From positions 61,246,902-61,310,901 of the forward strand of contig NC_091134.1 in assembly GCF_041381155.1 (NCBI RefSeq): a DNA stretch of 64,000 bases. Reading direction: 5' to 3'. The notes below the pieces were generated by a model. It did no database searches. It saw only the letters and a list, made by a program, of their open reading frames with translations, and was not told where the DNA came from. The translations under genes were made by a program, and so were the position numbers. Positions 32,706-64,000 of this stretch are shown piece after piece. The stretch is from Argopecten irradians (lineage: Eukaryota). Positions within the stretch are counted from its first letter, which is position 1; every line of letters begins with the position of its first letter.

Positions 32706-32778
32706 GGTTCTGTGGTGTAGTGGTTATCACGTCTGCTTTACACGCAGAAGGTCGCGAGTTCGAACCTCGCCAGAACCT
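32706..32778 (+). tRNA. tRNA-Val (anticodon TAC)
   Basis: GGTTCTG TG GTGT AGTGGTTA TCAC G TCTGC TTTACAC GCAGA AGGTC GCGAG TTCGAAC CTCGC CAGAACC. The 7-bp acceptor stem, D, anticodon and T arms all pair. The anticodon loop TTTACAC gives TAC. A T-run follows (ATTATTTTTCTTATTTTTTTTT), which is a Pol III terminator. Confidence 0.9.
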
Positions 32779-33139: not shown

Positions 33140-33212
33140 GGTTCCGTGGTGTAGTGGTTATCACGTCTGCTTAACACGCAGAAGGTCACGAGTTCGAAAC
33201 TCGTCGGAACCT
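33140..33212 (+). tRNA. tRNA-Val (anticodon AAC)
   Basis: GGTTCCG...CTGC TTAACAC GCAG...CACGAG TTCGAAA CTCGT CGGAACC. The cloverleaf pairs and the anticodon loop TTAACAC gives AAC. A TTATTTTTGTTT stretch lies downstream. Confidence 0.9.
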
Positions 33213-34189: not shown

Positions 34190-34500
<311 letters not shown>

Positions 34501-41864: not shown

Positions 41865-44809
41865 TTAGTAATGTAAACTCACGTCAGTCCGGCTGACCTT
41901 TGCAGTATTTTCCGAGACGGCATTACTACTCGAATTATCCTCGTTCCTTGATCTCTTGAGGCCTGTTTTTTGAAAAGGTCAAACAGTGTATTAGCGTTAT
42001 TTTTGCAATTAGTATCCAAAATTCCAATATATTGAAATATAATTCTGCACCATAATGTTTTAATGGTATAACTGACATAACATCTTTTTCTAAAACAATC
42101 CTTACCTGTCATTTTCTTGCATTAATTGTAATACGTGTAAAGTGGTTTTCTTCAAATTAAATAACTAGATCAAATGCCTTTAGAGCTAAACAAAATCAGT
42201 CGATTATACTTCCAGATTTAATTATGCAGTTACGTCTAACTCTAATAATACTCTTTTGTCACAAAAATGACCTGTATTACAAATCAGCGCACATGTTAGC
42301 AATCGAATGTAATCTAATATGACTAGAATTGTACTAATATTCAGTTCGTAAACAGGAAAACAAATATTACGGAAACGATAGGAATTAAGTGTGTTTTTGA
42401 ATCATGTTTTAAAATATCCGTAACAACAAAGTTCCACATTCAAATTTTATATCTAATTTTATAAGATGTTTATACTGTGATATGTTATAAACAACACTTT
42501 ATATCGCATGTATTTTGCTATATACTAGTTGTTGCTTAGGGAGATAACTCATATAGGCTATGCCAGTTGTTCGATCCTTTTCAAATGTTTTTGAAATAAA
42601 ATATGTTGAAATTGCAACGTTTTGTTTGAGAATTCCTGTGTGAAAAAGCAGTGGGTTTTCTGATTATCAAGTAGCATGTTAGCGTATAGCCAGTTTATAA
42701 TGCTAAAAATTTAACGATTTTCCTTTTAAACGAAAAAAAATATCCTATCAAAATTTCGCCATCAGATTAAAACAATACATTAATACTACCGATTTCTTAG
42801 CTTTCAACAAATCAAACTTGGCTAGCATGTAAATGTCCGGCATTGAAAATACCAGCCTGAAAAATCTTACCTTTAACGGTATAGTCTGTATACTCTTCCG
42901 CCTCACGAAGCATTCCGACAAGCTTAAGGCACTCTGCAGTGATGTGATATATCGAAATGTCTGAAGACTGGTTAAGTTTGGGGGAATTTTCTTCAACAAA
43001 TGCCCTCAGATGGTTGGCTACCTCTGATGCTTTGTTGAGATTTTCAGACGCAAGACAGCAATGCAGCTTGATCACGTTGGTGTAAAACAAAGGATTGATG
43101 AACAAGACATTTTTGGATTTCCTCATGACTTTTTGAACAGCTTCCGGGTAAAATGGTATCAGAACGGGAAGGCATATGACATCAAATGCTATGAATCGCT
43201 TTAGCGTTTGTTGAAAGGTGCTTGTTTTAGAGCGATGCGTTTCATGATAATCCTCGTCCTTTGGATTCCTGTCCCTGTTATAGAATGTATAATGGATGAT
43301 TGTCTCATCGTAGCGGCTGATGACATCTTCAGCAATGTCTTGTGCCTCTTTTACCCTTCCTTGGTTCAAATGAAATGAAGCTAACATCAACCGACCACTG
43401 CAAAATGTTAAATCTGCTTGTTGTTCAAGTAATAATTCAAGAGCGTCCTCATCACCGATTTTCTGTTGGAGGTTGTGAATAGCAGAGATTGTTTCGAATT
43501 CTTTTTGTAAAATCACAAAAATATCCTTTGATAAATCTTGATCTATAGCTCGTTGAATCTTTTCGCGGATGTGTCGCAGACATCTTGAAAATCTGTCAGC
43601 CTCAGAGGTAGAAAGGAGATTCATGCTGATATGACGAGCAAGACACAGCCCATTGGACAAAACATGATGAACGTTTACGTCATTTTCAGCGACATCATTA
43701 GTTCTAACTTGCAAAACTTTATCCCATTTTGCGGGTTCAAGTGTTTTGAATGCCATCAGTTCCAAAAGGAGTCCGTCTAAATCAAATGTCAATCTTGTGT
43801 CCATCATGTTGTTTGAAGGAATGAAATAATTTCTCACTTCTTTTCTTTCTAAACAAGTTATAATCCTATTCAGAAGCTCATCAAGGCATTGGTAAAGATT
43901 CTCAGGTTTCCACAATTCAACTGGCGATTCTTCTATCATCCAAAACATGGTTGTCTTTATAAAGTACGATGGGAACGCGTCTGGAAACTTAGGACTTATC
44001 CTCATGTTGAAGAAGATCTTCATGATATCAATGCATGCATATTGAGCAGTATTGAATGACAACACAAGTTGTCTCTCCATTTTGTTGAAAGATATTCTCC
44101 ATTCCAGTTCCTTCTCGGATGAATACGCATGCCCTACAGGGACCAAACTACCTCCTAATGTGGCTGCCATTGCGAGTGTTTTCTCATCAGGCCAGTTGAA
44201 ATTTCGGTGCCTCGTGCGCCATTCGTTGGCAAATTCAGGCCAGTCACAGTGTAAAGAAAAAAGAGTATCTATGTCGTTAACACGTTCTAATCCCCCATGC
44301 TGAAATGTTATACATGGTCCATGAGGCTGGAACTGTTGGGACATTCCTTGGCTTGGGAATATTAAACCATTGGTTAATTGCTTTTTCCAATATTGAGACG
44401 TCTTCATACTTGATATGTAGTCTGTGCCATCAACACAGAGGGATCGAACATCAATCATCATTTTGGATTGGTATCGATTGACATCAAACAATTTAACTTT
44501 GGTGTAACCAGAATGTGTGCCATATGTATCCATTACAACTACTGCGTCAGTGGATGTTGGTCTAACTTGACGTTGATTAGTTAGATAGCTTGCTTGTTCT
44601 ACGCCAGTTGTTGCCTTAATAGTTTGCGATTCATATATAAGATCGGTGTCCGATTCAAGTCCATGAATGAATTCGGCTTTGCTTCCGGATAAAAACAGAG
44701 GCAGTTGGGCTATGACCTGGATTGTATAGTTAATAATTTCGTACCGTTTAGCCATCTTTGGTAATTTGTCCTCAAATAAGTGAACAACTTTCGAACATTG
44801 ATCATCCAT
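41865..44809 (-). CDS. cGAS-like receptor (cGLR / Mab-21-type nucleotidyltransferase) paralog B. complement(join(41865..41962,42871..44809)), ~678 aa.
   Basis: This is the 665-aa ORF 42812..44809. N-terminal sequence MDDQCSKVVHLFEDKLPKMAKRYEII...LFLSGSKAEFIHGLESDTDLIYESQ carries the GS and [DE]h[DE]h motifs. The third catalytic acid is in DAVVVMDTYG. The C-terminal part is a cGAS/Mab21-type helical domain: WRISFNKMERQLVLSFNTAQYACIDIMKIFF...PSYFIKTTMFWMIEESPVELW...NYFIPSNNMMD. Compare human cGAS SWRLSFS, SSYHVKTAFFHV and LENYFIPEFNLF. The ORF runs through a phase-1 donor AAAG|GTAAGA at 42871/42870. The proposed 3' exon 41962..41865 has acceptor AAAAACAG| and encodes GLKRSRNEDNSSSNAVSENTAKVSRTDVSLHY*, homologous to paralog A's tail. 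A possible micro-exon (...ATGACAG|GTAAGG at ~42108) is not resolved. Confidence 0.75.
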
Positions 44810-47731: not shown

Positions 47732-49672
47732 TTATTCTACACACAGAGCCGCTATATCCTCCAGCTTGTTATTCTGATAATGTTTTGCAGATGCCGCGAG
47801 TTGTTGTGCTAGCTCTGCAGCCTCCTTATTGTATTTCTCAGCCTTAAAACAATGAAATTTGATAAGTTTGCCGTAAAATAGTGGGTTCATAAAAAGTACA
47901 GATTCCATCTTCTCTAACATAGTTTGAATTGATTTAGGATAAAGTGCATGTAGCATGGGCAGGCAGACAACATCAAACACAACAAACTTTTCAAGTGTTT
48001 CTTCTAAACTTGGTCTTGGGTACTTAATATCGAAATCGCAATCTTTTGGTTTTTTGTCCCTGTTGTGGAATGTATAATGAACAACGTTGTCGCCATAGCA
48101 TGGCACAAACATATCCACTTCTCTCCGTGCCTCAGGATATTTTTCCTGGGACAAATACCACGTTGCTAAGTGAAGACACCTGAAGCCTAAATGCACATTT
48201 TTCTGTCCTGTCATCCAAGCCACGAATTTATCATTGGTTTCTCTTTCCATTTCAGCAGATGTTAATATACCATTGATGTCCGCACGCAGGTCACTGCTTG
48301 ATCTAGTTTCAAATTGAATGTGTTCATGAAGCTTTTGAATAACGCCAATTTCAACTTGAAGAAGTGCCCATAACTCCTTCGATAGTTCTTGCTCAATAGC
48401 ATATTCCATGCTGCTGTTTATGTGTTCTATACATCGAGTGAATTCCTTGTTTTCTGTCGTAGAAAGCAGATTGATTATATAGTGTCGTACAGTGGACAAG
48501 GCGTTGATTTGGACATGGTAAAAATAAATATCATTTTCGTTTTTTTCATCTATCCTTGCTTTTAAAACAGGTTTCCATTTGTCTTGGCCTAACGTTTGGA
48601 ATTTCCTCAGCTCCACTAAAAGTGCATCAAGTCTTCCAGCGGGCTTCGTATCCATCATGTTGTTTGATGGAATAAAGTAATTCTTTAGTTCCTTCTTCTC
48701 AACGCAGGAGATAATACGATCAAGCAATCCTTGCAGGCAACTGCACAGGTTTTGTGGTTTCCATATATTTTGATCTGATTCTTCAACCATCCAAAACATA
48801 ATCGTTTTTATGAAATATGACGGAAACAAGTCGGGGAATTTCGGGCTGATTTTCACGTGAAAGAATATCTTCATAAAATCCACACAGGCAAATTGCGTGC
48901 CATTAAAAGACCAAACAAGTTGTCGTTCGGGCTTGTTAAAAGAAATTCGCCACTCTAGATGTCTTTGAGGAGAGCATGTATGTCCGATAGGCACAAGATG
49001 ACATCCTAGTGATTTTAATTTATTTTGAAGTTTCCCGTCTGGCCAGCCATGCTGTCTCGGCCTCGTAAACCAGTCGTTTGCCTGTTCGGGCCAGAGACAC
49101 GGCAAGGTAAAAACAGAGTCAATGTCTGTGTCGACTCGATTCTCGGTCCCTGTGTACTTGAATGTAATACATGGTCCATGCTGATACAGGCCATTCTTCA
49201 TCCCGTGAGAAGGAAACAGGTCCCGCCTAGACAGTCTGTCCTTCCAGAATATAGACACTAGATTGTTGGACAGGTAACCATCTATACATAAAGATGGGAC
49301 GTCTACCTCTTCATAGGCCTGATCACGCCGAATATCGAAAAGTTTTATTTTTGTATAGCCCTGATGTACCCCTTCCGAGTCAAACACCACCACGGCGTCG
49401 TAATCCTGCGTTAGTATACCTAGCTCTCTCGTCTGTTCCAGGTTTTGTACGACCTTTATTGTTTGGGACTCGTACATAATGTCAGTGTCCGAATTGAGTC
49501 CGTGGATACATTCAGCCTGACTGCCTAGATACATCATCGGCACACACCCAATACACTGCATCGTAAAATCGCGTAGTTTTACACGTGGGATCATTTTCGT
49601 TACCTTTTCCATAAAAATTGATACTGATTTCGTGCATAGCCTTTCCAAGTCGTTCTCGTCATCGTCAGCCAT
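47732..49672 (-). CDS. cGAS-like receptor (cGLR / Mab-21-type nucleotidyltransferase) paralog C, ~646 aa from the second ATG.
   Basis: This is the 672-aa ORF 47732..49750. By homology to A and B the start is the internal MADDDENDLERLCTKSVSIFMEKVTKMIPRV at 49672. Motifs present: ...MYLGSQAECIHGLNSDTDIMYESQ (GS and DTD), DAVVVFDSEG, WRISFNKPERQLVWSFNGTQFACVDFMKIFFHVKISPKFPDLFPSYFIKTIMFWMVEESDQNIWKPQNL and LKNYFIPSNNMMD. It ends in-frame at ...EDIAALCVE* (stop 47732-47734). Unlike A and B there is no obvious phase-1 donor, so the 3' end may differ. Confidence 0.8.
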   Translation of the reverse strand: MADDDENDLERLCTKSVSIFMEKVTKMIPRVKLRDFTMQCIGCVPMMYLGSQAECIHGLNSDTDIMYESQTIKVVQNLEQTRELGILTQDYDAVVVFDSEGVHQGYTKIKLFDIRRDQAYEEVDVPSLCIDGYLSNNLVSIFWKDRLSRRDLFPSHGMKNGLYQHGPCITFKYTGTENRVDTDIDSVFTLPCLWPEQANDWFTRPRQHGWPDGKLQNKLKSLGCHLVPIGHTCSPQRHLEWRISFNKPERQLVWSFNGTQFACVDFMKIFFHVKISPKFPDLFPSYFIKTIMFWMVEESDQNIWKPQNLCSCLQGLLDRIISCVEKKELKNYFIPSNNMMDTKPAGRLDALLVELRKFQTLGQDKWKPVLKARIDEKNENDIYFYHVQINALSTVRHYIINLLSTTENKEFTRCIEHINSSMEYAIEQELSKELWALLQVEIGVIQKLHEHIQFETRSSSDLRADINGILTSAEMERETNDKFVAWMTGQKNVHLGFRCLHLATWYLSQEKYPEARREVDMFVPCYGDNVVHYTFHNRDKKPKDCDFDIKYPRPSLEETLEKFVVFDVVCLPMLHALYPKSIQTMLEKMESVLFMNPLFYGKLIKFHCFKAEKYNKEAAELAQQLAASAKHYQNNKLEDIAALCVE

Positions 49673-51825
49673 GTTGTCTGTGTGACTCACACATATGTTA
49701 AAACATTTGTGTAAGTACACATATATGTAGCATGGATGCCCGCAGGGCATTTAAACGACTGTTATTAGACTTGCATGAGTCCGCACAATCATTTCTTCAT
49801 TCACATTTCCTTATCGATTGTTAATCTTATCTGGTTTTTACCACCTCAGATGAAATAATATGGTGTACACACGTCCAATTGTCCTTTATTAACCTATACC
49901 AAGAGACGACGTATTACAGGTACACTGTAACTTATCAGATTATTTGTTTTTATATCATATAGGGATTGGACAGTGCATATTAATAAAAATAAGAGCGTGC
50001 TGAAAGATATGTTTTGGGTTTAAGCATAAATATTTTCAATGCTATATATGGATAATAAAAGAGCTCACCTTCCCAGCTGTTCAGTAGACAGGCAATCCTA
50101 TACGAATAAGATATCCACGAAATTGAAAAATTACGTGGTGGGAGTCTTTCACTCGTTAATTTTAGTTTCCAATTGATTGACTGCCTAAAGTGAATAATAA
50201 ATCAGTTTTCTAAAATGTTTACATTCACATGATTACACAAAAGACGTGGTATGATATTTTATGTCTAAATCACAAATTTATATTCAAACATACTGTCACT
50301 GCTCCTTGCTGTGCATATTGCTACCGTTTCAACAATGGTCGGTAATAGCACTTGAATCAAATAAAAACAAAACCACTTTTCATCTGATTAATCTGATTAA
50401 TGAATCTAGACTTAACTGAAAAGATAACTTTTACTCCATCCGAGAATCTGCTTCTTTTCTTCATTCCCATCTCGAGAGAAATGTCCGTACAAAGCAATTT
50501 TAGCTCATATCTGCTATTAAATTAAAATTATTAGTTTGTAACTGTGTCGTCTAACGTTTTCGTGTTTCCCCGTTTTGTTTCATTATAAATCATTCATATC
50601 TATACTTGATCATATCTAATACAAAGATACAGGAATTAAGAAAACAACAACAATATTTTAAAGCAAGGCTATATGATATCACAATTTTATCAGAGTGTGC
50701 AAAATAGGCAAAACTACATTAGTAACATCAAATTGAAGATTTTCAAAATGAGTAGCACAATGTATATGTTTGTAATACATAAATGATCCTTGGTTCTATT
50801 CTATTCGAGGGTGAGAACAGAGCGGATAGGACCAGACGGAACGATATCGACACGGTACATGCTGCATTCATTCCCAACACGCCATGAATAAAAATCAAAG
50901 TATGTCTGTATTCAAAATGACACTGCCAAATCAAGAATGATATTCTTCAACAACCGTTTTCTAGACAGCAGCTTGCTTGAAATAGATTTTTATAAAGAAT
51001 TTGTTGTGTAAATTAAATGTTGATTTGACATTACGGGGTCCATCAGGGAGCTGTTTTGACTCTGCTTATTATCTAATATTAAAATTGACAATAAATTTAA
51101 TCATTGATTAAGGTTTTTCCTACCATGGCAATAACATGTCAATGAATGTTATTGCTTGTCTTCTTGGTTTCATCTGTTATTTTTATTACTTTATATTGCG
51201 CCAATAGCCAGCGTTATAATGTATTTTAATGAGTTTTGGGGCAGAGTGCAACTGCGTAAGCAGAAATCAACTACATCGATGTCCGAGATATGCAGGTTGG
51301 TAAAGAAGACTGCAGCAAAGCTTATTGCTCGATATAATTATCTCACCGGTACATCCTATGTTGTCATTTGGTAGAATAGGTCAGACTTGCTTACTATTTC
51401 CCTTGCTGTGCATTTTGCTGCTGTTTTATCAACAATTGTTGACGATAGGGCTTGAGTGAATTAAAAACCAAACCGCTGTTCATTTGGTTATACAACAATG
51501 TATTGCTGAATCTGGACTTGATTGAGAAGACAACTTTTTACTCCATCAGAGAATCTGCTTTTTTTCTTCATTCCCCTCTCGAGAAATGTCCCTATCCAAA
51601 TCAATCTTAGCTCATATCTGCTATTAAATTAAAATGGTTAGTTTGTATATGTGTCGTTTAACGTTTTCGTGTTTTCCCGTTTTGTTTCTTAATAAATCAT
51701 TCATATCTATACTTGATCATATATAATACAAAATGTTCTATGTCGATATGAAATATTGATGCAGAAGGGATAGCATAAAATGGAGTAACTTACAAGGCGT
51801 CTATTTGCTCTACTGATGGTAACGA

Positions 51826-51898
51826 GGTTCCGTGGTGTAGTGGTTATCACGTCTGCTTAACACGCAGAAGGTCACGAGTTCGAAACTCGTCGGAACCT
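51826..51898 (+). tRNA. tRNA-Val (AAC), array unit 1
   Basis: Identical to the 33140 gene. The acceptor pair GGTTCCG/CGGAACC holds, anticodon AAC. A terminator TTATTTTTATT follows. Confidence 0.9.
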
Positions 51899-52084
51899 GC
51901 AATTATTTTTATTGCATTTAACTAAATTATTTTCTCTATTCTTTGTGAAAAGAACCAATGCAAATTGAAACTTTCTTTCAAAACAGAATTAAATTCAAAT
52001 ATTTTTCTTTTCCAGTTAAAAAACTCCTAGGGAAAAGAATGTGAAACAAATACTATTGATATCTGGGCAGTGCATTAAGAAATC

Positions 52085-52157
52085 GGTTTCGTGGTGTAGT
52101 GGTTATCACGTCTGCTTTACACGCAGAAGGTCGCGAGTTCGAACCTCGCCGAAACCT
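52085..52157 (+). tRNA. tRNA-Val (TAC), array unit 1
   Basis: GGTTTCG...TCTGC TTTACAC GCAGA...GCGAG TTCGAAC CTCGC CGAAACC, anticodon TAC. A TATATTTTTTGT stretch lies downstream. Confidence 0.9.
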
Positions 52158-52582
52158 CCTTATATTTTTTGTATGCATTTAAACTTCACTTTTTAAAATG
52201 TAACTTTAAGTTGAATAAATTTGTTTTTGCACTATTAATTTTGTTTCACCATGTTTTTTTATATAGCATTAACCAAATGCACTTTGAAATAATTGATGAA
52301 ATATATATGTAATAATAGCATAATTAAATGTGAGAATATCAATTTTGCTTTACAAACACGTTACTTGAACCGACCGATAATTATATTTTCCAAACTAAAG
52401 AAGCCATCCCTTCCCATATATGAATTTTATATCGTCAAGTAACATCACACATTCTATCATTTCAGCAATAGTGATAGATGAACTAAATCGGTTTTCAAAG
52501 ATACATGAAATAAGCATATTTTTGTCAACAAATATCAACATGATAAAGCGTAAGACAATATTTGAAGAATGCGTAGCATATC

Positions 52583-52655
52583 GGTTTCGTGGTATAGCGG
52601 TTATCACGTCTGCTTCACACGCAGAAGGTCGCGAGTTCGAACCTCGCCGAAACCT
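52583..52655 (+). tRNA. tRNA-Val (CAC), array unit 1
   Basis: GGTTTCG TG GTAT AGCGGTTA TCAC G TCTGC TTCACAC GCAGA AGGTC GCGAG TTCGAAC CTCGC CGAAACC, anticodon CAC. It carries a D-arm variant (GTATAGCGG). A TTTTATTTTT stretch lies downstream. Confidence 0.9.
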
Positions 52656-54056
52656 CTTTTATTTTTACATAAGAACAAGACATTTTATTTTATTTTCATA
52701 TTAAGGCCTTAATACCAAGTTGATAGGATATCCGCGTTTATTAGCTTCAAATTACAAAATCAACGTTGTTTCTCTCTCTCTCTCTCTTAATTGATAACCG
52801 TATAAGGTGTTAATGTCGATAAGAAAACTCGTCCACATCAGCAGGAATTCGTATTTATACTATCCTTGTATTGCCAGGAATTAAGAAAACAACAACAATA
52901 TTTTAAAGCAAGGCTATATGATATCACAATTTTATAAGAGTGTGCAAAATAGGCAAAACTACATTAGTAACATCAAATTGAAGATTTTCAAAATGAGTAG
53001 CACAATGTATATATTTGTAATACATAAATGATCCTTGGTTCTATTCTATTCGAGGATAAGAACAGAGCGGATAGGACCAGACGGAACGATATCGACACGG
53101 TACATGCTGCATTCATTCCCAACACGCCATGAATAAAAGTCAAAGTATGACACTGCCAAATCAAGAATGATATTCTTCAACAAACCGTCTTCTAGACAGC
53201 AGCTTTCTTGAAATAGATTTTTATTAAGAATTTGTTGTGTAAATTAAATGTTTATTTGACATTACGGGGTCCATCAGGGAGCTGTTTTGACTCTACTTAG
53301 TATCTAATATTAAAATTGACAATAAATTTAATCATTGATTAAGGTTTTTCCTACCATGGCAATAACATGTCAATGAATGTTATTGCTTATCTTCTTGGTT
53401 TCATCTGTTATTTTTATTACTTTATATTGCGCCAATAGCCAGCGTTATAATGTATTTTAATGAGTTTTGGGGCAGAGTGCAACTGCGTAAGCAGAAATCA
53501 ACTACATCGATGTCCGAGATATGCAGGTTGGTAAAGAAGACTGCAGCAAAGCTTATTGGTCGATATAATTATCTCACCGGTACATCCTATGTTGTCATTT
53601 GGCAGAATAGGTCAGACTTGCTTACTATTTCCCTTGCTGTGCATTTTGCTGCTGTTTTATCAACAATTGTTGACGATAGGGCTTGAGTGAATTAAAAACC
53701 AAACCGCTGTTCATTTGGTTATACAACAATGTATTGCTGAATCTGGACTTGATTGAGAAGACAACTTTTTACTCCATCAGAGAATCTGCTTTTTTTCTTC
53801 ATTCCCCTCTCGAGAAATGTCCCTATCCAAATCAATCTTAGCTCATATCTGCTATTAAATTAAAATGGTTAGTTTGTATATGTGTCGTTTAACGTTTTCG
53901 TGTTTTCCCGTTTTGTTTCTTAATAAATCATTCATATCTATACTTGATCATATATAATACAAAATGTTCTATGTCGATATGAAATATTGATGCAGAAGGG
54001 ATAGCATAAAATGGAGTAACTTACAAGGCGTCTATTTGCTCTACTGATGGTAACGA

Positions 54057-54129
54057 GGTTCCGTGGTGTAGTGGTTATCACGTCTGCTTAACACGCAGAA
54101 GGTCACGAGTTCGAAACTCGTCGGAACCT
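54057..54129 (+). tRNA. tRNA-Val (AAC), unit 2
   Basis: Same sequence as 51826. Confidence 0.9.
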
Positions 54130-54317
54130 GCAATTATTTTTATTGCATTTAACTAAATTATTTTCTCTATTCTTTGTGAAAAGAACCAATGCAAATTTCA
54201 AAACTTTCTTTCAAAACAGAATTAAATTCAAATATTTTTCTTTTCCAGTTAAAAAACTCCTAGGGAAAAGAATGTGAAACAAATACTATTGATATCTGGG
54301 CAGTGCATTAAGAAATC

Positions 54318-54390
54318 GGTTTCGTGGTGTAGTGGTTATCACGTCTGCTTTACACGCAGAAGGTCGCGAGTTCGAACCTCGCCGAAACCT
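54318..54390 (+). tRNA. tRNA-Val (TAC), unit 2
   Basis: Same sequence as 52085. Confidence 0.9.
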
Positions 54391-54816
54391 CCTTATATTT
54401 TTTGTATGCATTTAAACTTCACTTTTTAAAATGTAACTTTAAGTTGAATAAATTTTGTTTTTGCACTATTAATTTTGTTTCACCATGTTTTTTTATATAG
54501 CATTAACCAAATGCACTTTGAAATAATTGATGAAATATATATGTAATAATAGCATAATTAAATGTGAGAATATCAATTTTGCTTTACAAACACGTTACTT
54601 GAACCGACCGATAATTATATTTTCCAAACTAAAGAAGCCATCCCTTCCCATATATGAATTTTATATCGTTAAGTAACATCACACATTCTATCATTTCAGC
54701 AATAGTGATAGATGAACTAAATCGGTTTTCAAAGATACATGAAATAAGCATATTTTTGTCAACAAATATCAACATGATAAAGCGTAAGACAATATTTGAA
54801 GAATGCGTAGCATATC

Positions 54817-54889
54817 GGTTTCGTGGTATAGCGGTTATCACGTCTGCTTCACACGCAGAAGGTCGCGAGTTCGAACCTCGCCGAAACCT
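54817..54889 (+). tRNA. tRNA-Val (CAC), unit 2
   Basis: Same sequence as 52583. The position was cross-checked against the in-frame ORF 54654..54938 (residue R55). Confidence 0.9.
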
Positions 54890-56293
54890 CTTTTATTTTT
54901 ACATAAGAACAAGACATTTTATTTTATTTTCATATTAAGGCCTTAATACCAAGTTGATAGGATATCCGCGTTTATTAGCTTCAAATTACAAAATCAACGT
55001 TGTTTCTCTCTCTCTCTCTCTCTTAATTGATAACCGTATAAGGTGTTAATGTCGATAAGAAAACTCGTCCACATCAGCAGGAATTCGTATTTATACTATC
55101 CTTGTATTGCCAGGAATTAAGAAAACAACAACAATATTTTAAAGCAAGGCTATATGATATCACAATTTTATAAGAGTGTGCAAAATAGGCAAAACTACAT
55201 TAGTAACATCAAATTGAAGATTTTCAAAATGAGTAGCACAATGTATATATTTGTAATACATAAATGATCCTTGGTTCTATTCTATTCGAGGATAAGAAAC
55301 AGAGCGGATAGGACCAGACGGAACGATATCGACACGGTACATGCTGCATTCATTCCCAACACGCCATGAATAAAAGTCAAAGTATGACACTGCCAAATCA
55401 AGAATGATATTCTTCAACAAACCGTCTTCTAGACAGCAGCTTGCTTGAAATAGATTTTTATTAAGAATTTGTTGTGTAAATTAAATGTTGATTTGACATT
55501 ACGGGGTCCATCAGGGAGCTGTTTTGACTCTACTTAGTATCTAATATTAAAATTGACAATAAATTTAATCATTGATTAAGGTTTTTCCTACCATGGCAAT
55601 AACATGTCAATGAATGTTATTGCTTATCTTCTTGGTTTCATCTGTTATTTTTATTACTTTATATTGCGCCAATAGCCAGCGTTATAATGTATTTTAATGA
55701 GTTTTGGGGCAGAGTGCAACTGCGTAAGCAGAAATCAACTACATCGATGTCCGAGATATGCAGGTTGGTAAAGAAGACTGCAGCAAAGCTTATTGGTCGA
55801 TATAATTATCTCACCGGTACATCCTATGTTGTCATTTGGCAGAATAGGTCAGACTTGCTTACTATTTCCCTTGCTGTGCATTTTGCTGCTGTTTTATCAA
55901 CAATTGTTGACGATAGGGCTTGAGTGAATTAAAAACCAAACCGCTGTTCATTTGGTTATACAACAATGTATTGCTGAATCTGGACTTGATTGAGAAGACA
56001 ACTTTTTACTCCATCAGAGAATCTGCTTTTTTTCTTCATTCCCCTCTCGAGAAATGTCCCTATCCAAATCAATCTTAGCTCATATCTGCTATTAAATTAA
56101 AATGGTTAGTTTGTATATGTGTCGTTTAACGTTTTCGTGTTTTCCCGTTTTGTTTCTTAATAAATCATTCATATCTATACTTGATCATATATAATACAAA
56201 ATGTTCTATGTCGATATGAAATATTGATGCAGAAGGGATAGCATAAAATGGAGTAACTTACAAGGCGTCTATTTGCTCTACTGATGGTAACGA

Positions 56294-56366
56294 GGTTCCG
56301 TGGTGTAGTGGTTATCACGTCTGCTTAACACGCAGAAGGTCACGAGTTCGAAACTCGTCGGAACCT
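56294..56366 (+). tRNA. tRNA-Val (AAC), unit 3
   Basis: Same sequence as 51826. Confidence 0.9.
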
Positions 56367-56552
56367 GCAATTATTTTTATTGCATTTAACTAAATTATTT
56401 TCTCTATTCTTTGTCAAAAGAACCAATGCAAATTCAAACTTTCTTTCAAAACAGAATTAAATTCAAATATTTTTCTTTTCCAGTTAAAAAACTCCTAGGG
56501 AAAAGAATGTGAAACAAATACTATTGATATCTGGGCAGTGCATTAAGAAATC

Positions 56553-56625
56553 GGTTTCGTGGTGTAGTGGTTATCACGTCTGCTTTACACGCAGAAGGTC
56601 GCGAGTTCGAACCTCGCCGAAACCT
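56553..56625 (+). tRNA. tRNA-Val (TAC), unit 3
   Basis: Same sequence as 52085. Confidence 0.9.
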
Positions 56626-57055
56626 CCTTATATTTTTTGTATGCATTTAAACTTCACTTTTTAAAATGTAACTTTAAGTTGAATAAATTTGTTTTTTGCA
56701 CTATTAATTTTGTTTCACCATGTTTTTTTTATATAGCATTAACCAAATGCACTTTGAAATAATTGATGATGAAATATATATGTAATAATAGCATAATTAA
56801 ATGTGAGAATATCAATTTTGCTTTACAAACACGTTACTTGAACCGACCGATAATTATATTTTCCAAACTAAAGAAGCCATCCCTTCCCATATATGAATTT
56901 TATATCGTCAAGTAACATCACACATTCTATCATTTCAGCAATAGTGATAGATGAACTAAATCGGTTTTCAAAGATACATGAAATAAGCATATTTTTGTCA
57001 ACAAATATCAACATGATAAAGCGTAAGACAATATTTGAAGAATGCGTAGCATATC

Positions 57056-57128
57056 GGTTTCGTGGTATAGCGGTTATCACGTCTGCTTCACACGCAGAAG
57101 GTCGCGAGTTCGAACCTCGCCGAAACCT
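57056..57128 (+). tRNA. tRNA-Val (CAC), unit 3
   Basis: Same sequence as 52583. The position was cross-checked against ORF 56893..57177. Confidence 0.9.
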
Positions 57129-58528
57129 CTTTTATTTTTACATAAGAACAAGACATTTTATTTTATTTTCATATTAAAATTGACAATAAAGTTGATAGGA
57201 TATCCGCGTTTATTAGCTTCAAAATTACAAAATCAACGTTGTTTCTCTCTCTCTCTCTTAATTGATAACCGTATAAGGTGTTAATGTCGATAAGAAAACT
57301 CGTCCACATCAGCAGGAATTCGTATTTATACTATCCTTGTATTGCCAGGAATTAAGAAAACAACAACAATATTTTAAAGCAAGGCTATATGATATCACAA
57401 TTTTATAAGAGTGTGCAAAATAGGCAAAACTACATTAGTAACATCAAATTGAAGATTTTCAAAATGAGTAGCACAATGTATATATTTGTAAAACATAAAT
57501 GATCCTTGGTTCTATTCTATTCGAGGATAAGAACAGAGCGGATAGGACCAGACGGAACGATATCGACACGGTACATGCTGCATTCATTCCCAACACGCCA
57601 TGAATAAAAGTCAAAGTATGACACTGCCAAATCAAGAATGATATTCTTCAACAAACCGTCTTCTAGACAGCAGCTTGCTTGAAATAGATTTTTATTAAGA
57701 ATTTGTTGTGTAAATTAAATGTTGATTTGACATTACGGGGTCCATCAGGGAGCTGTTTTGACTCTACTTAGTATCTAATATTAAAATTGACAATAAATTT
57801 AATCATTGATTAAGGTTTTTCCTACCATGGCAATAACATGTCAATGAATGTTATTGCTTATCTTCTTGGTTTCATCTGTTATTTTTATTACTTTATATTG
57901 CGCCAATAGCCAGCGTTATAATGTATTTTAATGAGTATTGGGGCAGAGTGCAACTGCGTAAGCAGAAATCAACTACATCGATGTCCGAGATATGCAGGTT
58001 GGTAAAGAAGACTGCAGCAAAGCTTATTGGTCGATATAATTATCTCACCGGTACATCCTATGTTGTCATTTGGCAGAATAGGTCAGACTTGCTTACTATT
58101 TCCCTTGCTGTGCATTTTGCTGCTGTTTTATCAACAATTGTTGACGATAGGGCTTGAGTGAATTAAAAACCAAACCGCTGTTCATTTGGTTATACAACAA
58201 TGTATTGCTGAATCTGGACTTGATTGAGAAGACAACTTTTTACTCCATCAGAGAATCCTCTTTTTTTTCTTCATTCCCCTCTCGAGAAATGTCCCTATCC
58301 AAATCAATCTTAGCTCATATCTGCTATTAAATTAAAATGGTTAGTTTGTATATGTGTCGTTTAACGTTTTCGTGTTTTCCCGTTTTGTTTCTTAATAAAT
58401 CATTCATATCTATACTTGATCATATATAATACAAAATGTTCTATGTCGATATGAAATATTGATGCAGAAGGGATAGCATAAAATGGAGTAACTTACAAGG
58501 CGTCTATTTGCTCTACTGATGGTAACGA

Positions 58529-58601
58529 GGTTCCGTGGTGTAGTGGTTATCACGTCTGCTTAACACGCAGAAGGTCACGAGTTCGAAACTCGTCGGAACC
58601 T
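58529..58601 (+). tRNA. tRNA-Val (AAC), unit 4
   Basis: Same sequence as 51826. Confidence 0.9.
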
Positions 58602-58788
58602 GCAATTATTTTTATTGCATTTAACTAAATTATTTTCTCTATTCTTTGTCAAAAGAACCAATGCAAATTTAAACTTTCTTTCAAAACAGAATTAAATTCA
58701 AATATTTTTCTTTTCCAGTTAAAAAAACTCCTAGGGAAAAGAATGTGAAACAAATACTATTGATATCTGGGCAGTGCATTAAGAAATC

Positions 58789-58861
58789 GGTTTCGTGGTG
58801 TAGTGGTTATCACGTCTGCTTTACACGCAGAAGGTCGCGAGTTCGAACCTCGCCGAAACCT
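58789..58861 (+). tRNA. tRNA-Val (TAC), unit 4
   Basis: Same sequence as 52085. Confidence 0.9.
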
Positions 58862-59288
58862 CCTTATATTTTTTGTATGCATTTAAACTTCACTTTTTAA
58901 AATGTAACTTTAAGTTGAATAAATTTTTTTTTGCACTATTAATTTTGTTCCACCATGTTTTTTTTTATATAGGATTAACCAAATGCACTTTGAAATAATT
59001 GATGAAATATATATGTAATAATAGCATAATTAAATGTGAGAATATCAATTTTGCTTTACAAACACGTTACTTGAACCGACCGATAATTATATTTTCCAAA
59101 CTAAAGAAGCCATCCCTTCCCATATATGAATTTTATATCGTCAAGTAACATCACACATTCTATCATTTCAGCAATAGTGATAGATGAACTAAATCGGTTT
59201 TCAAAGATACATGAAATAAGCATATTTTTGTCAACAAATATCAACATGATAAAGCGTAAGACAATATTTGAAGAATGCGTAGCATATC

Positions 59289-59361
59289 GGTTTCGTGGTA
59301 TAGCGGTTATCACGTCTGCTTCACACGCAGAAGGTCGCGAGTTCGAACCTCGCCGAAACCT
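59289..59361 (+). tRNA. tRNA-Val (CAC), unit 4
   Basis: Same sequence as 52583. The position was cross-checked against ORF 59126..59410. Confidence 0.9.
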
Positions 59362-60762
59362 CTTTTATTTTTACATAAGAACAAGACATTTTATTTTATT
59401 TTCATATTAAGGCCTTAATACCAAGTTGATAGGATATCCGCGTTTATTAGCTTCAAATTACAAAATCAACGTTGTTTCTCTCTCTCTCTCTCTTAATTGA
59501 TAACCGTATAAGGTGTTAATGTCGATAAGAAAACTCGTCCACATCAGCAGGAATTCGTATTTATACTATCCTTGTATTGCCAGGAATTAAGAAAACAACA
59601 ACAATATTTTAAAGCAAGGCTATATGATATCACAATTTTATAAGAGTGTGCAAAATAGGCAAAACTACATTAGTAACATCAAATTGAAGATTTTCAAAAT
59701 GAGTAGCACAATGTATATGTTTGTAATACATAAATGATCCTTGGTTCTATTCTATTCGAGGATAAGAACAGAGCGGATAGGACCAGACGGAACGATATCG
59801 ACACGGTACATGCTGCATTCATTCCCAACACGCCATGAATAAAAGTCAAAGTATGACACTGCCAAATCAAGAATGATATTCTTCAACAAACCGTCTTCTA
59901 GACAGCAGCTTGCTTGAAATAGATTTTTATAAAGAATTTGTTGTGTAAATTAAATGTTGATTTGACATTACGGGGTCCATCAGGGAGCTGTTTTGACTCT
60001 ACTTAGTATCTAATATTAAAATTGACAATAAATTTAATCATTGATTAAGGTTTTTCCTACCATGGCAATAACATGTCAATGAATGTTATTGCTTATCTTC
60101 TTGGTTTCATCTGTTATTTTTATTACTTTATATTGCGCCAATAGCCAGCGTTATAATGTATTTTAATGAGTTTTGGGGCAGAGTGCAACTGCGTAAGCAG
60201 AAATCAACTACATCGATGTCCGAGATATGCAGGTTGGTAAAGAAGACTGCAGCAAAGCTTATTGGTCGATATAATTATCTCACCGGTACATCCTATGTTG
60301 TCATTTGGCAGAATAGGTCAGACTTGCTTACTATTTCCCTTGCTGTGCATTTTGCTGCTGTTTTATCAACAATTGTTGACGATAGGGCTTGAGTGAATTA
60401 AAAACCAAACCGCTGTTCATTTGGTTATACAACAATGTATTGCTGAATCTGGACTTGATTGAGAAGACAACTTTTTACTCCATCAGAGAATCTGCTTTTT
60501 TTCTTCATTCCCCTCTCGAGAAATGTCCCTATCCAAATCAATCTTAGCTCATATCTGCTATTAAATTAAAATGGTTAGTTTGTATATGTGTCGTTTAACG
60601 TTTTCGTGTTTTCCCGTTTTGTTTCTTAATAAATCATTCATATCTATACTTGATCATATATAATACAAAATGTTCTATGTCGATATGAAATATTGATGCA
60701 GAAGGGATAGCATAAAATGGAGTAACTTACAAGGCGTCTATTTGCTCTACTGATGGTAACGA

Positions 60763-60836
60763 GGTTTCCGTGGTGTAGTGGTTATCACGTCTGCTTAACA
60801 CGCAGAAGGTCACGAGTTCGAAACTCGTCGGAACCT
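60763..60836 (+). tRNA. tRNA-Val (AAC), unit 5. This is a variant copy with a 1-nt T insertion in the 5' acceptor stem (GGTTTCCG).
   Basis: GAGGTTTCCGTGGTGTAG versus GAGGTTCCGTGGTGTAG in the other copies. The rest is identical. The insertion is predicted to disturb acceptor pairing at positions 5-7. Confidence 0.7.
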
Positions 60837-61022
60837 GCAATTATTTTTATTGCATTTAACTAAATTATTTTCTCTATTCTTTGTCAAAAGAACCAATGCA
60901 AATTCAAACTTTCTTTCAAAACAGAATTAAATTCAAATATTTTTCTTTTCCAGTTAAAAAACTCCTAGGGAAAAGAATGTGAAACAAATACTATTGATAT
61001 CTGGGCAGTGCATTAAGAAATC

Positions 61023-61095
61023 GGTTTCGTGGTGTAGTGGTTATCACGTCTGCTTTACACGCAGAAGGTCGCGAGTTCGAACCTCGCCGAAACCT
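61023..61095 (+). tRNA. tRNA-Val (TAC), unit 5
   Basis: Same sequence as 52085. Confidence 0.9.
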
Positions 61096-61520
61096 CCTTA
61101 TATTTTTTGTATGCATTTAAACTTCACTTTTTAAAATGTAACTTTAAGTTGAATAAATTTGTTTTTGCACTATTAATTTTGTTTCACCATGTTTTTTTAT
61201 ATAGCATTAACCAAATGCACTTTGAAATAATTGATGAAATATATATGTAATAATAGCATAATTAAATGTGAGAATATCAATTTTGCTTTACAAACACGTT
61301 ACTTGAACCGACCGATAATTATATTTTCCAAACTAAAGAAGCCATCCCTTCCCATATATGAATTTTATATCGTCAAGTAACATCACACATTCTATCATTT
61401 CAGCAATAGTGATAGATGAACTAAATCGGTTTTCAAAGATACATGAAATAAGCATATTTTTGTCAACAAATATCAACATGATAAAGCGTAAGACAATATT
61501 TGAAGAATGCGTAGCATATC

Positions 61521-61593
61521 GGTTTCGTGGTATAGCGGTTATCACGTCTGCTTCACACGCAGAAGGTCGCGAGTTCGAACCTCGCCGAAACCT
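61521..61593 (+). tRNA. tRNA-Val (CAC), unit 5
   Basis: Same sequence as 52583. The position was cross-checked against ORF 61358..61642. Confidence 0.9.
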
Positions 61594-63000
61594 CTTTTAT
61601 TTTTACATAAGAACAAGACATTTTATTTTATTTTCATATTAAGGCCTTAATACCAAGTTGATAGGATATCCGCGTTTATTAGCTTCAAATTACAAAATCA
61701 ACGTTTTTCTCTCTCTCTCTCTCTCTTAATTGATAACCGTATAAGGTGTTAATGTCGATAAGAAAACTCGTCCACATCAGCAGGAATTCGTATTTATACT
61801 ATCCTTGTATTGCCAGGAATTAAGAAAACAACAACAATATTTTAAAGCAAGGCTATATGATATCACAATTTTATAAGAGTGTGCAAAATAGGCAAAACTA
61901 CATTAGTAACATCAAATTGAAGATTTTCAAAATGAGTAGCACAATGTATATGTTTGTAATACATAAATGATCCTTGGTTCTATTCTATTCGAGGATAAGA
62001 ACAGAGCGGATAGGACCAGACGGAACGATATCGACACGGTACATGCTGCATTCATTCATTCCCAACACGCCATGAATAAAAGTCAAAGTATGACACTGCC
62101 AAATCAAGAATGATATTCTTCAACAAACCGTCTTCTAGACAGCAGCTTGCTTGAAATAGATTTTTATTAAGAATTTGTTGTGTAAATTAAATGTTGATTT
62201 GACATTACGGGGTCCATCAGGGAGCTGTTTTGACTCTACTTATTATCTAATATTAAAATTGACAATAAATTTAATCATTGATTAAGGTTTTTCCTACCAT
62301 GGCAATAACATGTCAATGAATGTTATTGCTTATCTTCTTGGTTTCATCTGTTATTTTTATTACTTTATATTGCGCCAATAGCCAGCGTTATAATGTATTT
62401 TAATGAGTTTTGGGGCAGAGTGCAACTGCGTAAGCAGAAATCAACTACATCGATGTCCGAGATATGCAGGTTGGTAAAGAAGACTGCAGCAAAGCTTATT
62501 GGTCGATATAATTATCTCACCGGTACATCCTATGTTGTCATTTGGCAGAATAGGTCAGACTTGCTTACTATTTCCCTTGCTGTGCATTTTTGCTGCTGTT
62601 TTATCAACAATTGTTGACGATAGGGCTTGAGTGAATTAAAAACCAAACCGCTGTTCATTTGGTTATACAACAATGTATTGCTGAATCTGGACTTGATTGA
62701 GAAGACAACTTTTTACTCCATCAGAGAATCTGCTTTTTTTCTTCATTCCCCTCTCGAGAAATGTCCCTATCCAAATCAATCTTAGCTCATATCTGCTATT
62801 AAATTAAAATGGTTAGTTTGTATATGTGTCGTTTAACGTTTTCGTGTTTTCCCGTTTTGTTTCTTAATAAATCATTCATATCTATACTTGATCATATATA
62901 ATACAAAATGTTCTATGTCGATATGAAATATTGATGCAGAAGGGATAGCATAAAATGGAGTAACTTACAAGGCGTCTATTTGCTCTACTGATGGTAACGA

Positions 63001-63073
63001 GGTTCCGTGGTGTAGTGGTTATCACGTCTGCTTAACACGCAGAAGGTCACGAGTTCGAAACTCGTCGGAACCT
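63001..63073 (+). tRNA. tRNA-Val (AAC), unit 6
   Basis: Same sequence as 51826. Confidence 0.9.
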
Positions 63074-63259
63074 GCAATTATTTTTATTGCATTTAACTAA
63101 ATTATTTTCTCTATTCTTTGTCAAAAGAACCAATGCAAATTCAAACTTTCTTTCAAAACAGAATTAAATTCAAATATTTTTCTTTTCCAGTTAAAAAACT
63201 CCTAGGGAAAAGAATGTGAAACAAATACTATTGATATCTGGGCAGTGCATTAAGAAATC

Positions 63260-63332
63260 GGTTTCGTGGTGTAGTGGTTATCACGTCTGCTTTACACGCA
63301 GAAGGTCGCGAGTTCGAACCTCGCCGAAACCT
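63260..63332 (+). tRNA. tRNA-Val (TAC), unit 6
   Basis: Same sequence as 52085. Confidence 0.9.
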
Positions 63333-63758
63333 CCTTATATTTTTTGTATGCATTTAAACTTCACTTTTTAAAATGTAACTTTAAGTTGAATAAATTTGTT
63401 TTTGCACTATTAATTTTGTTTCACCATGTTTTTTTTATATAGCATTAACCAAATGCACTTTGAAATAATTGATGAAATATATATGTAATAATAGCATAAT
63501 TAAATGTGAGAATATCAATTTTGCTTTACAAACACGTTACTTGAACCGACCGATAATTATATTTTCCAAACTAAAGAAGCCATCCCTTCCCATATATGAA
63601 TTTTATATCGTCAAGTAACATCACACATTCTATCATTTCAGCAATAGTGATAGATGAACTAAATCGGTTTTCAAAGATACATGAAATAAGCATATTTTTG
63701 TCAACAAATATCAACATGATAAAGCGTAAGACAATATTTGAAGAATGCGTAGCATATC

Positions 63759-63831
63759 GGTTTCGTGGTATAGCGGTTATCACGTCTGCTTCACACGCAG
63801 AAGGTCGCGAGTTCGAACCTCGCCGAAACCT
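63759..63831 (+). tRNA. tRNA-Val (CAC), unit 6
   Basis: Same sequence as 52583. The position was cross-checked against ORF 63596..63880. Confidence 0.9.
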
Positions 63832-64000
63832 CTTTTATTTTTACATAAGAACAAGACATTTTATTTTATTTTCATATTAAGGCCTTAATACCAAGTTGAT
63901 AGGATATCCGCGTTTATTAGCTTCAAATTACAAAATCAACGTTGTTTTCTCTCTCTCTCTCTCTTAATTGATAACCGTATAAGGTGTTAATGTCGATAAG

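Follow-up and report, generated by a model that had tools for sequence, protein, structure and literature searches.

A head-to-tail array of tRNA-Val isoacceptor triplets beside Mab-21/cGLR-like genes in Argopecten irradians

Adjoining a cluster of Mab-21/cGLR-like genes in the nuclear DNA of Argopecten irradians is a tract in which three tRNA genes with different valine anticodons recur every 2.2 kb or so, which raises the question of what this repeat is, how it arose and what it might contribute to the cell. We analysed the 64,000-nucleotide stretch that holds it (hereafter, the window), in which the neighbouring ORF matches a protein of A. irradians at 100% identity. The reading that we favour, with a probability of roughly 0.85, is that of a head-to-tail array of nuclear Pol III tRNA-Val genes, born in this lineage by tandem duplication and most probably serving the bulk supply of tRNA-Val.

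BLAST comparison of the window with itself resolves six head-to-tail units in a single register from 50630 to 64000 (Table 1), 2233–2245 bp long, in one orientation and 99.0–99.8% identical in pairwise comparisons, with substitutions and indels private to individual units. Unit 2 is used as the reference for unit positions. Besides the insertion in unit 1, the private features include a 4-bp insertion in unit 6, a 9-column cluster in unit 3 and differing (CT)n lengths, while the alignment of units also reveals certain variants common to non-adjacent units. The left boundary of the array is anchored in unique sequence. The partial copy at this edge corresponds to unit positions 758–1089, the segment directly upstream of the AAC gene, and the junction alignment shows it joined straight to unit position 1, skipping the 1.15-kb tRNA-bearing part. 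On the right, the array either extends past the window or stops just outside it. The initial annotation had described at least six units of about 2.235 kb and about 99% identity, a truncated tRNA-less unit on the left and an array running off the right end, and all of this agrees with the self-comparison.

Within each unit the genes follow the order AAC, TAC and CAC, with 259–262 bp between the first two starts and 498–503 bp between the last two (subtraction of ARAGORN coordinates), so the fixed order and spacing reported earlier hold throughout. The first triplet begins at 51.8 kb and the series continues to the end of the window with an AAC-to-AAC period of 2231–2237 bp; gaps of 1.4 kb separate the triplets of adjacent units. 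A (CT)7–9 run follows the CAC gene once per unit, as had also been noticed. The spacer, about 2 kb per unit, is AT-rich (31% GC) and non-coding; the spacers contain no ORF longer than 94 aa and no Rfam match besides the tRNAs, and the unit is devoid of coding or mobile-element features.

Table 1. Coordinates of the tRNA-Val genes, repeat units and associated features in the window
Feature	Position	Strand	Evidence
Solo tRNA-Val(TAC), outside array	32706–32778	+	ARAGORN; Rfam 69.4 bits
Solo tRNA-Val(AAC), outside array	33140–33212	+	ARAGORN, Rfam
Partial unit, diverged, tRNA-less	50304–50625	+	blastn 83% over 334 columns; junction alignment
Unit 1 (2245 bp), edge unit, most diverged, private 15-bp insertion	50630–52874	+	
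tRNA-Val(AAC), unit 1	51826–51898	+	ARAGORN; Rfam 64.3 bits; cloverleaf evaluation
tRNA-Val(TAC), unit 1	52085–52157	+	ARAGORN; Rfam 68.6 bits; cloverleaf evaluation
tRNA-Val(CAC), unit 1, A12·C23 D-stem mismatch	52583–52655	+	ARAGORN; Rfam 59.4 bits; cloverleaf evaluation
(CT)8 microsatellite, unit 1, ~115 bp 3' of CAC gene (runs in units 2–6 start at 55006, 57245, 59478, 61709, 63949)	52772–52787	.	
Unit 2 (2236 bp), reference	52875–55110	+	
tRNA-Val(AAC), unit 2	54057–54129	+	ARAGORN, Rfam
tRNA-Val(TAC), unit 2	54318–54390	+	ARAGORN, Rfam
tRNA-Val(CAC), unit 2, A12·C23	54817–54889	+	ARAGORN, Rfam, cloverleaf evaluation
Unit 3 (2235 bp)	55111–57345	+	
tRNA-Val(AAC), unit 3	56294–56366	+	ARAGORN, Rfam
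tRNA-Val(TAC), unit 3	56553–56625	+	ARAGORN, Rfam
tRNA-Val(CAC), unit 3, A12·C23	57056–57128	+	ARAGORN, Rfam, cloverleaf evaluation
Unit 4 (2235 bp)	57346–59580	+	
tRNA-Val(AAC), unit 4	58529–58601	+	ARAGORN, Rfam
tRNA-Val(TAC), unit 4	58789–58861	+	ARAGORN, Rfam
tRNA-Val(CAC), unit 4, A12·C23	59289–59361	+	ARAGORN, Rfam, cloverleaf evaluation
Unit 5 (2233 bp)	59581–61813	+	
tRNA-Val(AAC), unit 5, 1-nt T insertion in 5' acceptor strand (GGTTTCCG)	60763–60836	+	Rfam 55.9 bits
tRNA-Val(TAC), unit 5	61023–61095	+	ARAGORN, Rfam
tRNA-Val(CAC), unit 5, A12·C23	61521–61593	+	ARAGORN, Rfam, cloverleaf evaluation
Unit 6, ended by window edge at unit position 2185/2236 (51 bp short)	61814–64000	+	
tRNA-Val(AAC), unit 6	63001–63073	+	ARAGORN, Rfam
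tRNA-Val(TAC), unit 6	63260–63332	+	ARAGORN, Rfam
tRNA-Val(CAC), unit 6, A12·C23	63759–63831	+	ARAGORN, Rfam, cloverleaf evaluation

ARAGORN and Rfam RF00005 concur on 20 tRNA-Val genes in the window, the number originally counted, all on the + strand: six AAC/TAC/CAC triplets and two solo genes, with RF00005 scores of 55.9–69.4 bits (E values of 1e-9 to 1e-13) against a gathering score of 29. The genes are 73 nt long and intronless, and their 3' flank reads TGC, TCC or TCT, so CCA is not encoded. Every gene has an A box (TGGTGTAGTGG or TGGTATAGCGG) at position 8 and the B-box residues G53, T54, T55, C56, G57, A58 and C61, the core GTTCGAA being followed by C61. The claim that each gene has its own terminator also stands: a T4–T6 run begins 2–8 nt past the 3' end of every array gene and 9–10 nt past that of both solo genes. 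Of the 18 array genes, 17 are intact and retain their promoter boxes and terminators; the AAC copy of unit 5 is probably impaired by its acceptor-stem insertion. Each unit would therefore comprise three separate transcription units, with internal A/B box promoters and their own oligo-T terminators. Judged by RF00005 score, NAC anticodon, A and B boxes, oligo-T and the lack of introns, these are predicted to be eukaryotic nuclear tRNA-Val genes of the Pol III type 2 class.

The U13·U22 pair is typical of tRNA-Val, and the metazoan valine signature joins a GUGU D stem to a UYYGC anticodon stem (PMC9023262). Every gene has a cloverleaf, canonical but for U13·U22. Its evaluation in the AAC and TAC genes gives a GUGU D stem, a UCUGC anticodon stem and U13·U22. 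The CAC genes deviate, with a GUAU D stem that creates an A12·C23 mismatch in all six copies; the cloverleaf energy of the array CAC gene is −18.4 kcal/mol, compared with −22.4 for a G12 homologue in contig L003 (see below). Acceptor stems are GGUUCCG or GGUUUCG and T stems ACGAG or GCGAG, instead of the GUUUCCG acceptor stem and CCCGG/CUGGG T stem conserved in valine tRNAs of insects and mammals, the only groups on which those motifs were defined (PMC9023262). Environmental eukaryotic Val genes often have these stem variants too, so the divergence reads as probable lineage variation and not as disqualifying. The discriminator is U73. Of 113 related Val genes of environmental origin, 61 have this base as well; in the tRNA-Val of human, fly and yeast it is A73.

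Compensatory changes at two acceptor-stem pairs, 5:68 and 6:67, distinguish the solo TAC gene from its array counterpart, the array Val-UAC having U5-A68/C6-G67; A12 is the corresponding marker of the array Val-CAC. A further double-sided compensatory change separates the T stem of the AAC gene from that of the TAC and CAC genes, and these double-sided changes indicate past selection on gene structure. The solo AAC gene has exactly the sequence of its array counterpart, and in self-BLAST their flanks are similar over only ~15 nt on the 3' side.

In Pecten maximus and Ylistrum balloti, the 10 kb upstream of the orthologous locus contain no tRNA; the upstream genes are syntenic between these two species, and the window does not share this synteny. 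Given the absence of tRNA genes from the orthologous position, the array is lineage-specific at this locus. The short contig L003 (Logan SRR30047117), from another sample, carries a CAC gene and the end-of-unit/start-of-unit junction in colinear arrangement at 88% identity; identity within the array exceeds 99%, and the contrast would speak for concerted evolution if L003 were orthologous. We found no mollusc array of this type in the literature searched.

Under the favoured reading, a segment comprising the spacer and three tRNA genes would have been duplicated in tandem beside the cGLR/Mab-21-like cluster in the Argopecten lineage, and the array would then have expanded. Its uniformity of ~99% may reflect unequal crossing-over together with gene conversion, or simply youth. 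Unequal crossing-over or concerted evolution, the mechanisms proposed by the initial annotation, are the standard explanation and fit these data: divergence is greatest in the edge unit, and non-adjacent units have some variants in common. By wobble rules, AAC (read as IAC after A34-to-I34 editing), UAC and CAC form the full eukaryotic set for GUN codons. Since all four GUN codons are read by this trio once A34 is edited, each unit, if transcribed and its products aminoacylated, would provide everything needed to decode valine, with the three genes in a fixed 1:1:1 ratio. The most probable role would be bulk tRNA-Val supply through gene dosage, and not a novel device.

It is possible, though on the unlikely side, that a genuine array is transcriptionally silent, or a decaying surplus left as a neutral by-product of local amplification in repressive chromatin and contributing little tRNA. 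Tandem Ser-Tyr-Tyr and Pro clusters of Arabidopsis are silent despite intact cis-elements (PMC7544208), and tDNA clusters turn over near-neutrally (PMC2888827). The D-stem mismatch of every array CAC gene and the insertion in one AAC copy are in line with decay, and the 1:1:1 isoacceptor ratio is set here beside codon counts from local ORFs (GTT 39, GTA 28, GTG 25 and GTC 22). Against silence stand the promoter boxes and terminators retained in nearly all array genes and the lower variation of the tRNAs, which vary in 1 of 219 alignment columns versus 72 of 2048 for the spacer (Fisher p = 0.008, on columns). The CpG observed/expected ratio of the spacer, 0.81, equals that of the rest of the window and gives no sign of heavy germline methylation, although a young array might not yet bear its mark.

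A different and improbable reading is that the triad is an old, selectively kept module, linking the three valine decoders for joint amplification, silencing or activation at a fixed ratio, which the scallop has amplified as a dosage block and possibly also as a Pol III/TFIIIC chromatin boundary by the innate-immune cGLR cluster. We scanned metagenome contigs by pattern for adjacent Val isoacceptors and found the triad in three unrelated environmental eukaryotic contigs: L026 (ENA OREC01008489) has two tandem copies of AAC-TAC-CAC at a period of ~2.6 kb, and L122 (Ga0308023_1028308) and L081 (Ga0115552_1131605) have one triad each. All three resemble the scallop in tRNA-Val family, anticodon arm, U73 and the adjacency of three isoacceptors on one strand, and L122 and L081 also have its GCGAG/ACGAG T stems. 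However, spacer homology with the scallop unit is absent, and in L026 the copies are old, with only 140–359-bp blocks aligning at 78–81%. The cyclic order shared by the two tandem cases has a chance expectation of one in two. Whatever the merit of the module reading, grouping of Val isoacceptors is not unique to the scallop; the clustering described at the outset is real but less unusual than it was then taken to be.

It is very improbable that the periodicity is an assembly artefact, with the repeat over-expanded or collapsed so that six copies misrepresent the chromosome. The units are more than 99% identical, the array leaves the window, and one published A. irradians assembly was built from noisy 10-kb PacBio libraries (PMC11439060), whose reads would span ~4 units at most. 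Nevertheless, each unit has its own substitutions and indels, the left edge is fixed in unique sequence, and L003, an unrelated short-read contig, independently holds the unit junction. These observations support the tandem structure as true and leave the exact copy number alone in doubt.

Hardly credible is the idea that the units are a tandem tRNA-bearing mobile element, either a tRNA-derived SINE or a Helenus-type TRIM with tRNA-like LTR sequence. Helenus elements, defined by a tRNA-like head in terminal direct repeats and a PBS/PPT-bounded internal region, measure 311–1263 bp, are known from pteriomorph bivalves, Pectinida among them, and are able to build arrays in tandem (PMC10886601), and unit positions 758–1089 (segment A) do recur in diverged form at the left edge; however, the unit measures 2.24 kb and has no LTR-like direct repeats, nothing but the tRNA and ~15 nt of flank being common to its three tRNA-bearing segments (self-BLAST), a terminator right after each tRNA leaves no SINE body or tail, and BLAST found no unit-like sequence elsewhere in the window or in L001/L002. 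Membership in either element class was rejected on the grounds of this limited repetition, the size and the immediate terminators. The array tRNAs are, moreover, full-length and high-scoring with Val-type stems, whereas bivalve Helenus heads align with tRNA-Lys, the few families predicted to code for a tRNA encode tRNA-Thr, and most are non-functional (PMC10886601).

With its near-identical, co-oriented units, the scallop array is nothing out of the ordinary among the fast-evolving tRNA gene arrays known from many eukaryotes. The tRNA arrays of Entamoeba and Xenopus are grouped with the homogeneous tDNA clusters among the systems that it resembles. Tandem tRNA arrays and homogeneous tDNA clusters with fast turnover are well documented (PMC2888827, PMC7544208, PMC4041453), the latter across eukaryotes. 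Surveyed homogeneous clusters (Bermudez-Santana et al. 2010, PMC2888827) share with the scallop a single amino acid, parallel orientation, poor synteny and rapid turnover; the rule used there requires genes less than 1 kb apart, which the scallop array satisfies only within a unit. The human 1q23.3 tRNA VNTR (7.3-kb unit, 9–43 copies) is similar in its kilobase-scale unit, of which tRNAs form a small fraction, in its highly similar copies and in a spacer not conserved between species, but its unit binds CTCF and is GC-rich (PMC4041453), whereas that of the scallop is AT-rich. The Ser-Tyr-Tyr cluster on chromosome 1 of Arabidopsis thaliana (27 units; PMC7544208, PMC12308677) has the same regular three-tRNA unit repeated many times head-to-tail in one orientation, is likewise intergenic and represents a lineage-specific surplus in copy number. 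It is methylated and silent in most tissues (PMC7544208, PMC12308677), and its unit serves two amino acids, whereas that of the scallop carries the full isoacceptor set of one.

In the 64-kb window, ARAGORN called 20 tRNA-Val genes, every one of them on the plus strand. Rfam RF00005, whose gathering score is 29, recovered the same set at 55.9-69.4 bits, and 20 is also the number of genes given in the initial annotation. Two of them are solo genes outside the array; the remaining 18 are arranged as six AAC-TAC-CAC triplets, with an AAC-to-AAC period of 2231-2237 bp and, from subtraction of the ARAGORN coordinates, within-unit spacings of ~260 bp (AAC to TAC) and ~500 bp (TAC to CAC). Tandem Repeats Finder, limited to periods of up to 500 bp, misses the array; the register was taken instead from a repeat search and from BLAST of one unit against the window, a self-comparison of the kind that the initial annotation had suggested, which returned six units. 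Their pairwise identities are 99.0-99.8%. The earlier reading, namely at least six near-identical units of ~2.235 kb with AAC, TAC and CAC genes in fixed order and spacing, is confirmed as an observation and supported as an interpretation, and the array extends past the right end of the window as proposed.

Coordinates of the solo tRNA-Val genes and of the array units in the window
Feature	Position	Strand	Detection	Remark
Solo tRNA-Val(TAC)	32706-32778	+	ARAGORN, Rfam	
Solo tRNA-Val(AAC)	33140-33212	+	ARAGORN, Rfam	
U1	50630-52874			Edge unit
U2	52875-55110			Reference unit
U3	55111-57345			
U4	57346-59580			
U5	59581-61813			
U6	61814-64000			Truncated by window end (unit position 2185 of 2236)

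The truncated, diverged and tRNA-less unit described at the left edge was located at 50304-50625. It is 83% identical to unit positions 758-1089, the segment just upstream of the AAC gene, and is fused straight to unit position 1, so that it lacks the 1.15-kb part with the tRNA triplet and the (CT)n run; no convincing microhomology was seen at this left breakpoint. Two further features of the initial annotation, a T-run terminator for each gene and a (CT)n run after the CAC gene, were found throughout. A run of 4-6 T begins 2-8 nt past every array gene and 9-10 nt past both solo genes, and a (CT)7-9 run, differing in length among units, lies ~115 bp 3' of each CAC gene.

All three gene types fold into a standard cloverleaf in which U13·U22, a recognized hallmark of tRNA-Val (PMC9023262), is the sole non-standard pair apart from an A12·C23 mismatch in the CAC genes. 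The genes have an A box at position 8 together with the invariant residues of the B box, and none encodes CCA or contains an intron. The D stem (GUGU) and the anticodon stem (UCUGC) agree with the metazoan Val signature, while neither the acceptor stems (GGUUCCG, GGUUUCG) nor the T stems (ACGAG, GCGAG) fit the insect-mammal motifs of the same study (PMC9023262). In the acceptor stem, two double-sided compensatory changes separate the solo TAC gene (C5-G68/U6-A67) from the array TAC genes (U5-A68/C6-G67), and the T stem has A49-U65 in AAC genes and G49-C65 in TAC and CAC genes; selection on structure is visible in both differences. Across the six units, 1 of 219 alignment columns is variable in the tRNA genes versus 72 of 2048 in the spacers (Fisher p 0.008 when columns are counted), a contrast that becomes marginal when events are roughly counted instead. 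A12 stands opposite C23 in the D stem of all six array CAC genes (including that at 52583-52655), making the cloverleaf ~4 kcal/mol less stable than that of a G12 homologue outside the window (L003, a Logan contig), and the CAC Rfam score goes down to 59.4 bits. Given its presence in all six genes, a mildly destabilizing change has been fixed array-wide, which shows that it rode along with the amplification or spread through the array. The AAC copy of U5, whose acceptor stem carries one additional T on its 5' strand, scores 55.9 bits.

That homologue lies on a 1755-bp contig from run SRR30047117, reached by using the CAC-overlapping ORF as a protein query. Positions 1137-1753 are colinear with the window across the boundary between two consecutive units (88%), including the CAC gene, and homology to the scallop unit ends 205 bp upstream of that gene, the sequence beyond being unrelated. 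The junction between the tRNA-bearing part and the unit start is thus also present outside the assembly of the window, which argues against an artefact. The unrelated part of the contig (1-1136) contains a long near-perfect hairpin at about 985-1075 (ttaccttttactgtcttata...tataagacagtaaaaggtaa), and this region might represent either the edge of an array or a MITE-like insertion.

Scanned against metagenome contigs, the Val anticodon-arm pattern matched 120 loci, with 113 well-formed Val genes. The exact sequence of the solo TAC gene occurs ten times in the scanned contigs. One environmental eukaryotic contig (ENA OREC01008489, 2036-5967, minus strand) carries AAC-TAC-CAC twice in tandem with a ~2.6-kb period, similarity being confined to short 78-81% blocks; a second (Ga0308023_1028308) has Ala-[AAC-TAC-CAC]-Ala inside 700 bp, a third (Ga0115552_1131605) has the order AAC-CAC-TAC, and a further locus (L099) has 14 Val-TAC genes with a 138-bp period. 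The clustering of isoacceptors proposed in the initial annotation therefore stands, but not its description as unusual, given that Val triads occur on the first three of these contigs; with Val isoacceptors often adjacent in environmental contigs, such clustering is a recurrent arrangement. The same genes bear on the discriminator, which is U73 in all 20 tRNA-Val genes of the window. Human, fly and yeast tRNA-Val have A73. Of the 113 environmental eukaryotic genes sharing the anticodon arm, 61 have T as discriminator and 52 have A, T73 mostly going with the GCGAG T stem, and all matches from the ORF-based protein search have U73. These numbers make U73 common within the related tRNA-Val family, and we rejected it as an oddity of the array.

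The spacers contain no ORF longer than 94 aa, the longest simply reading through the CAC gene, and this CAC-overlapping ORF was the only one in the spacer regions to give protein-search matches. No homologous units were returned by a 1209-aa protein query built by concatenating six-frame translations of the spacers, a 29-nt stretch of spacer conserved in both the window and the Logan contig matched nothing in a metagenome scan, and a permissive Rfam scan of 50200-55200 detected tRNAs and no other RNA family. Unit sequence was not found elsewhere in the window, the left-edge fragment excepted, nor in the orthologous loci of Pecten maximus and Ylistrum balloti. Helenus-type TRIMs, which carry tRNA-like sequence inside LTRs, measure 311-1263 bp and are known in Pectinida (PMC10886601). 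A mobile-element origin from such a TRIM or a SINE was rejected on unit anatomy, since similarity among the three tRNA-bearing segments is confined to the tRNA plus ~15 nt.

The window is bay scallop nuclear DNA with a GC content of 30-40%, and the array begins ~550 bp upstream of, and is oriented away from, a 672-aa ORF (47732-49750, minus strand). This ORF matches with 100% identity an uncharacterized protein of Argopecten irradians (75.5-Mb contig), followed by proteins of P. maximus (68%) and Y. balloti (64%). Together with two neighbouring ORFs it has Mab-21 nucleotidyltransferase and Mab-21_C domains, which identify the three as relatives of cGAS-like receptors. They are tandem, apparently intronless paralogues on the minus strand (37266-39275, 42812-44809 and 47732-49750) with 73-75% DNA similarity; one has a weak Pfam TPR match, and the first is split into two ORFs (38502-39275 and 37266-38306), which may reflect an intron, a frameshift or a pseudogene. 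Orthologous pairs are present in P. maximus and Y. balloti, where the downstream Mab-21 paralogue is syntenic and upstream exons are common to both species; no homology to their upstream neighbour genes was found in the window. Neither species has a tRNA gene within 10 kb upstream of the orthologue of the 672-aa ORF, which makes the array a derived trait of the Argopecten lineage at this locus. Other repeats in the window include a 54-bp tandem repeat at 25594-26649 (about 15-20 copies, core identity 94-98%), which overlaps a 144-aa minus-strand ORF with low-complexity Pfam matches only and could be a coding exon of 18-aa repeats or a minisatellite. An 8-bp-period tract at 34172-34544, ~1 kb downstream of the solo tRNA pair, overlaps a 129-aa ORF without a Pfam match, and a ~125-nt direct repeat at 21745-22394 has four copies at a spacing of 158-206 bp (identity 60-83%).

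As to its origin, we infer that the array would have arisen by tandem duplication of unit positions 1-2236, with unequal crossing-over or gene conversion acting afterwards. U1, at the array edge, has diverged most (12-22 substitutions relative to the others), U5 and U6 differ by only 4 substitutions, and some variants recur in non-adjacent units (column 138 in U1, U5 and U6; column 370 in U1 and U5; column 445 in U1 and U6), all of which fit such a history. The ancestral order may have been the left-edge fragment, the unit start, the segment upstream of the AAC gene and the tRNA-bearing part, with the last three amplified, or else upstream segment, tRNA-bearing part and unit start, with a deletion in the edge copy. 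Each array gene would act as an independent Pol III unit, and the array would multiply a complete Val decoding set at 1:1:1. Under the wobble rules, GUU and GUC are decoded by IAC, GUA by UAC and weakly by IAC, and GUG by both UAC and CAC.

Bivalve genomes contain hundreds to thousands of tRNA genes, with large differences between lineages; A. purpuratus has 1664 (PMC5905365), and Ostrea shows strong isotype skews (PMC9679248). Our literature search found no description of this scallop tRNA-Val array, which shows amplification of an entire isoacceptor set as a single block. It is a candidate copy-number-variable marker in an aquaculture species and a trap for assembly and tRNA gene counts, with at least 18 of the genome's Val genes at one locus. 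A12 in Val-CAC and acceptor pairs 5:68 and 6:67 in Val-UAC are natural tags that would distinguish array from dispersed genes in tRNA-seq, making expression versus silencing of clustered animal tRNA genes directly testable here. The array otherwise leaves existing knowledge of tRNA biology unchanged. Tandem tRNA arrays with kilobase units exist in several lineages, Xenopus among them. Further arrays of this kind are found in Entamoeba, zebrafish, Nematostella and others (PMC2888827); in Arabidopsis, a Ser-Tyr-Tyr array of 27 tandem copies is silent in most tissues (PMC7544208), and at human 1q23.3, a tandem tRNA array has a 7.3-kb unit in 9-43 copies (PMC4041453). The scallop array, neat but ordinary, belongs to this already known class of tandem tRNA arrays and is a clean molluscan addition to its lineage-specific members.
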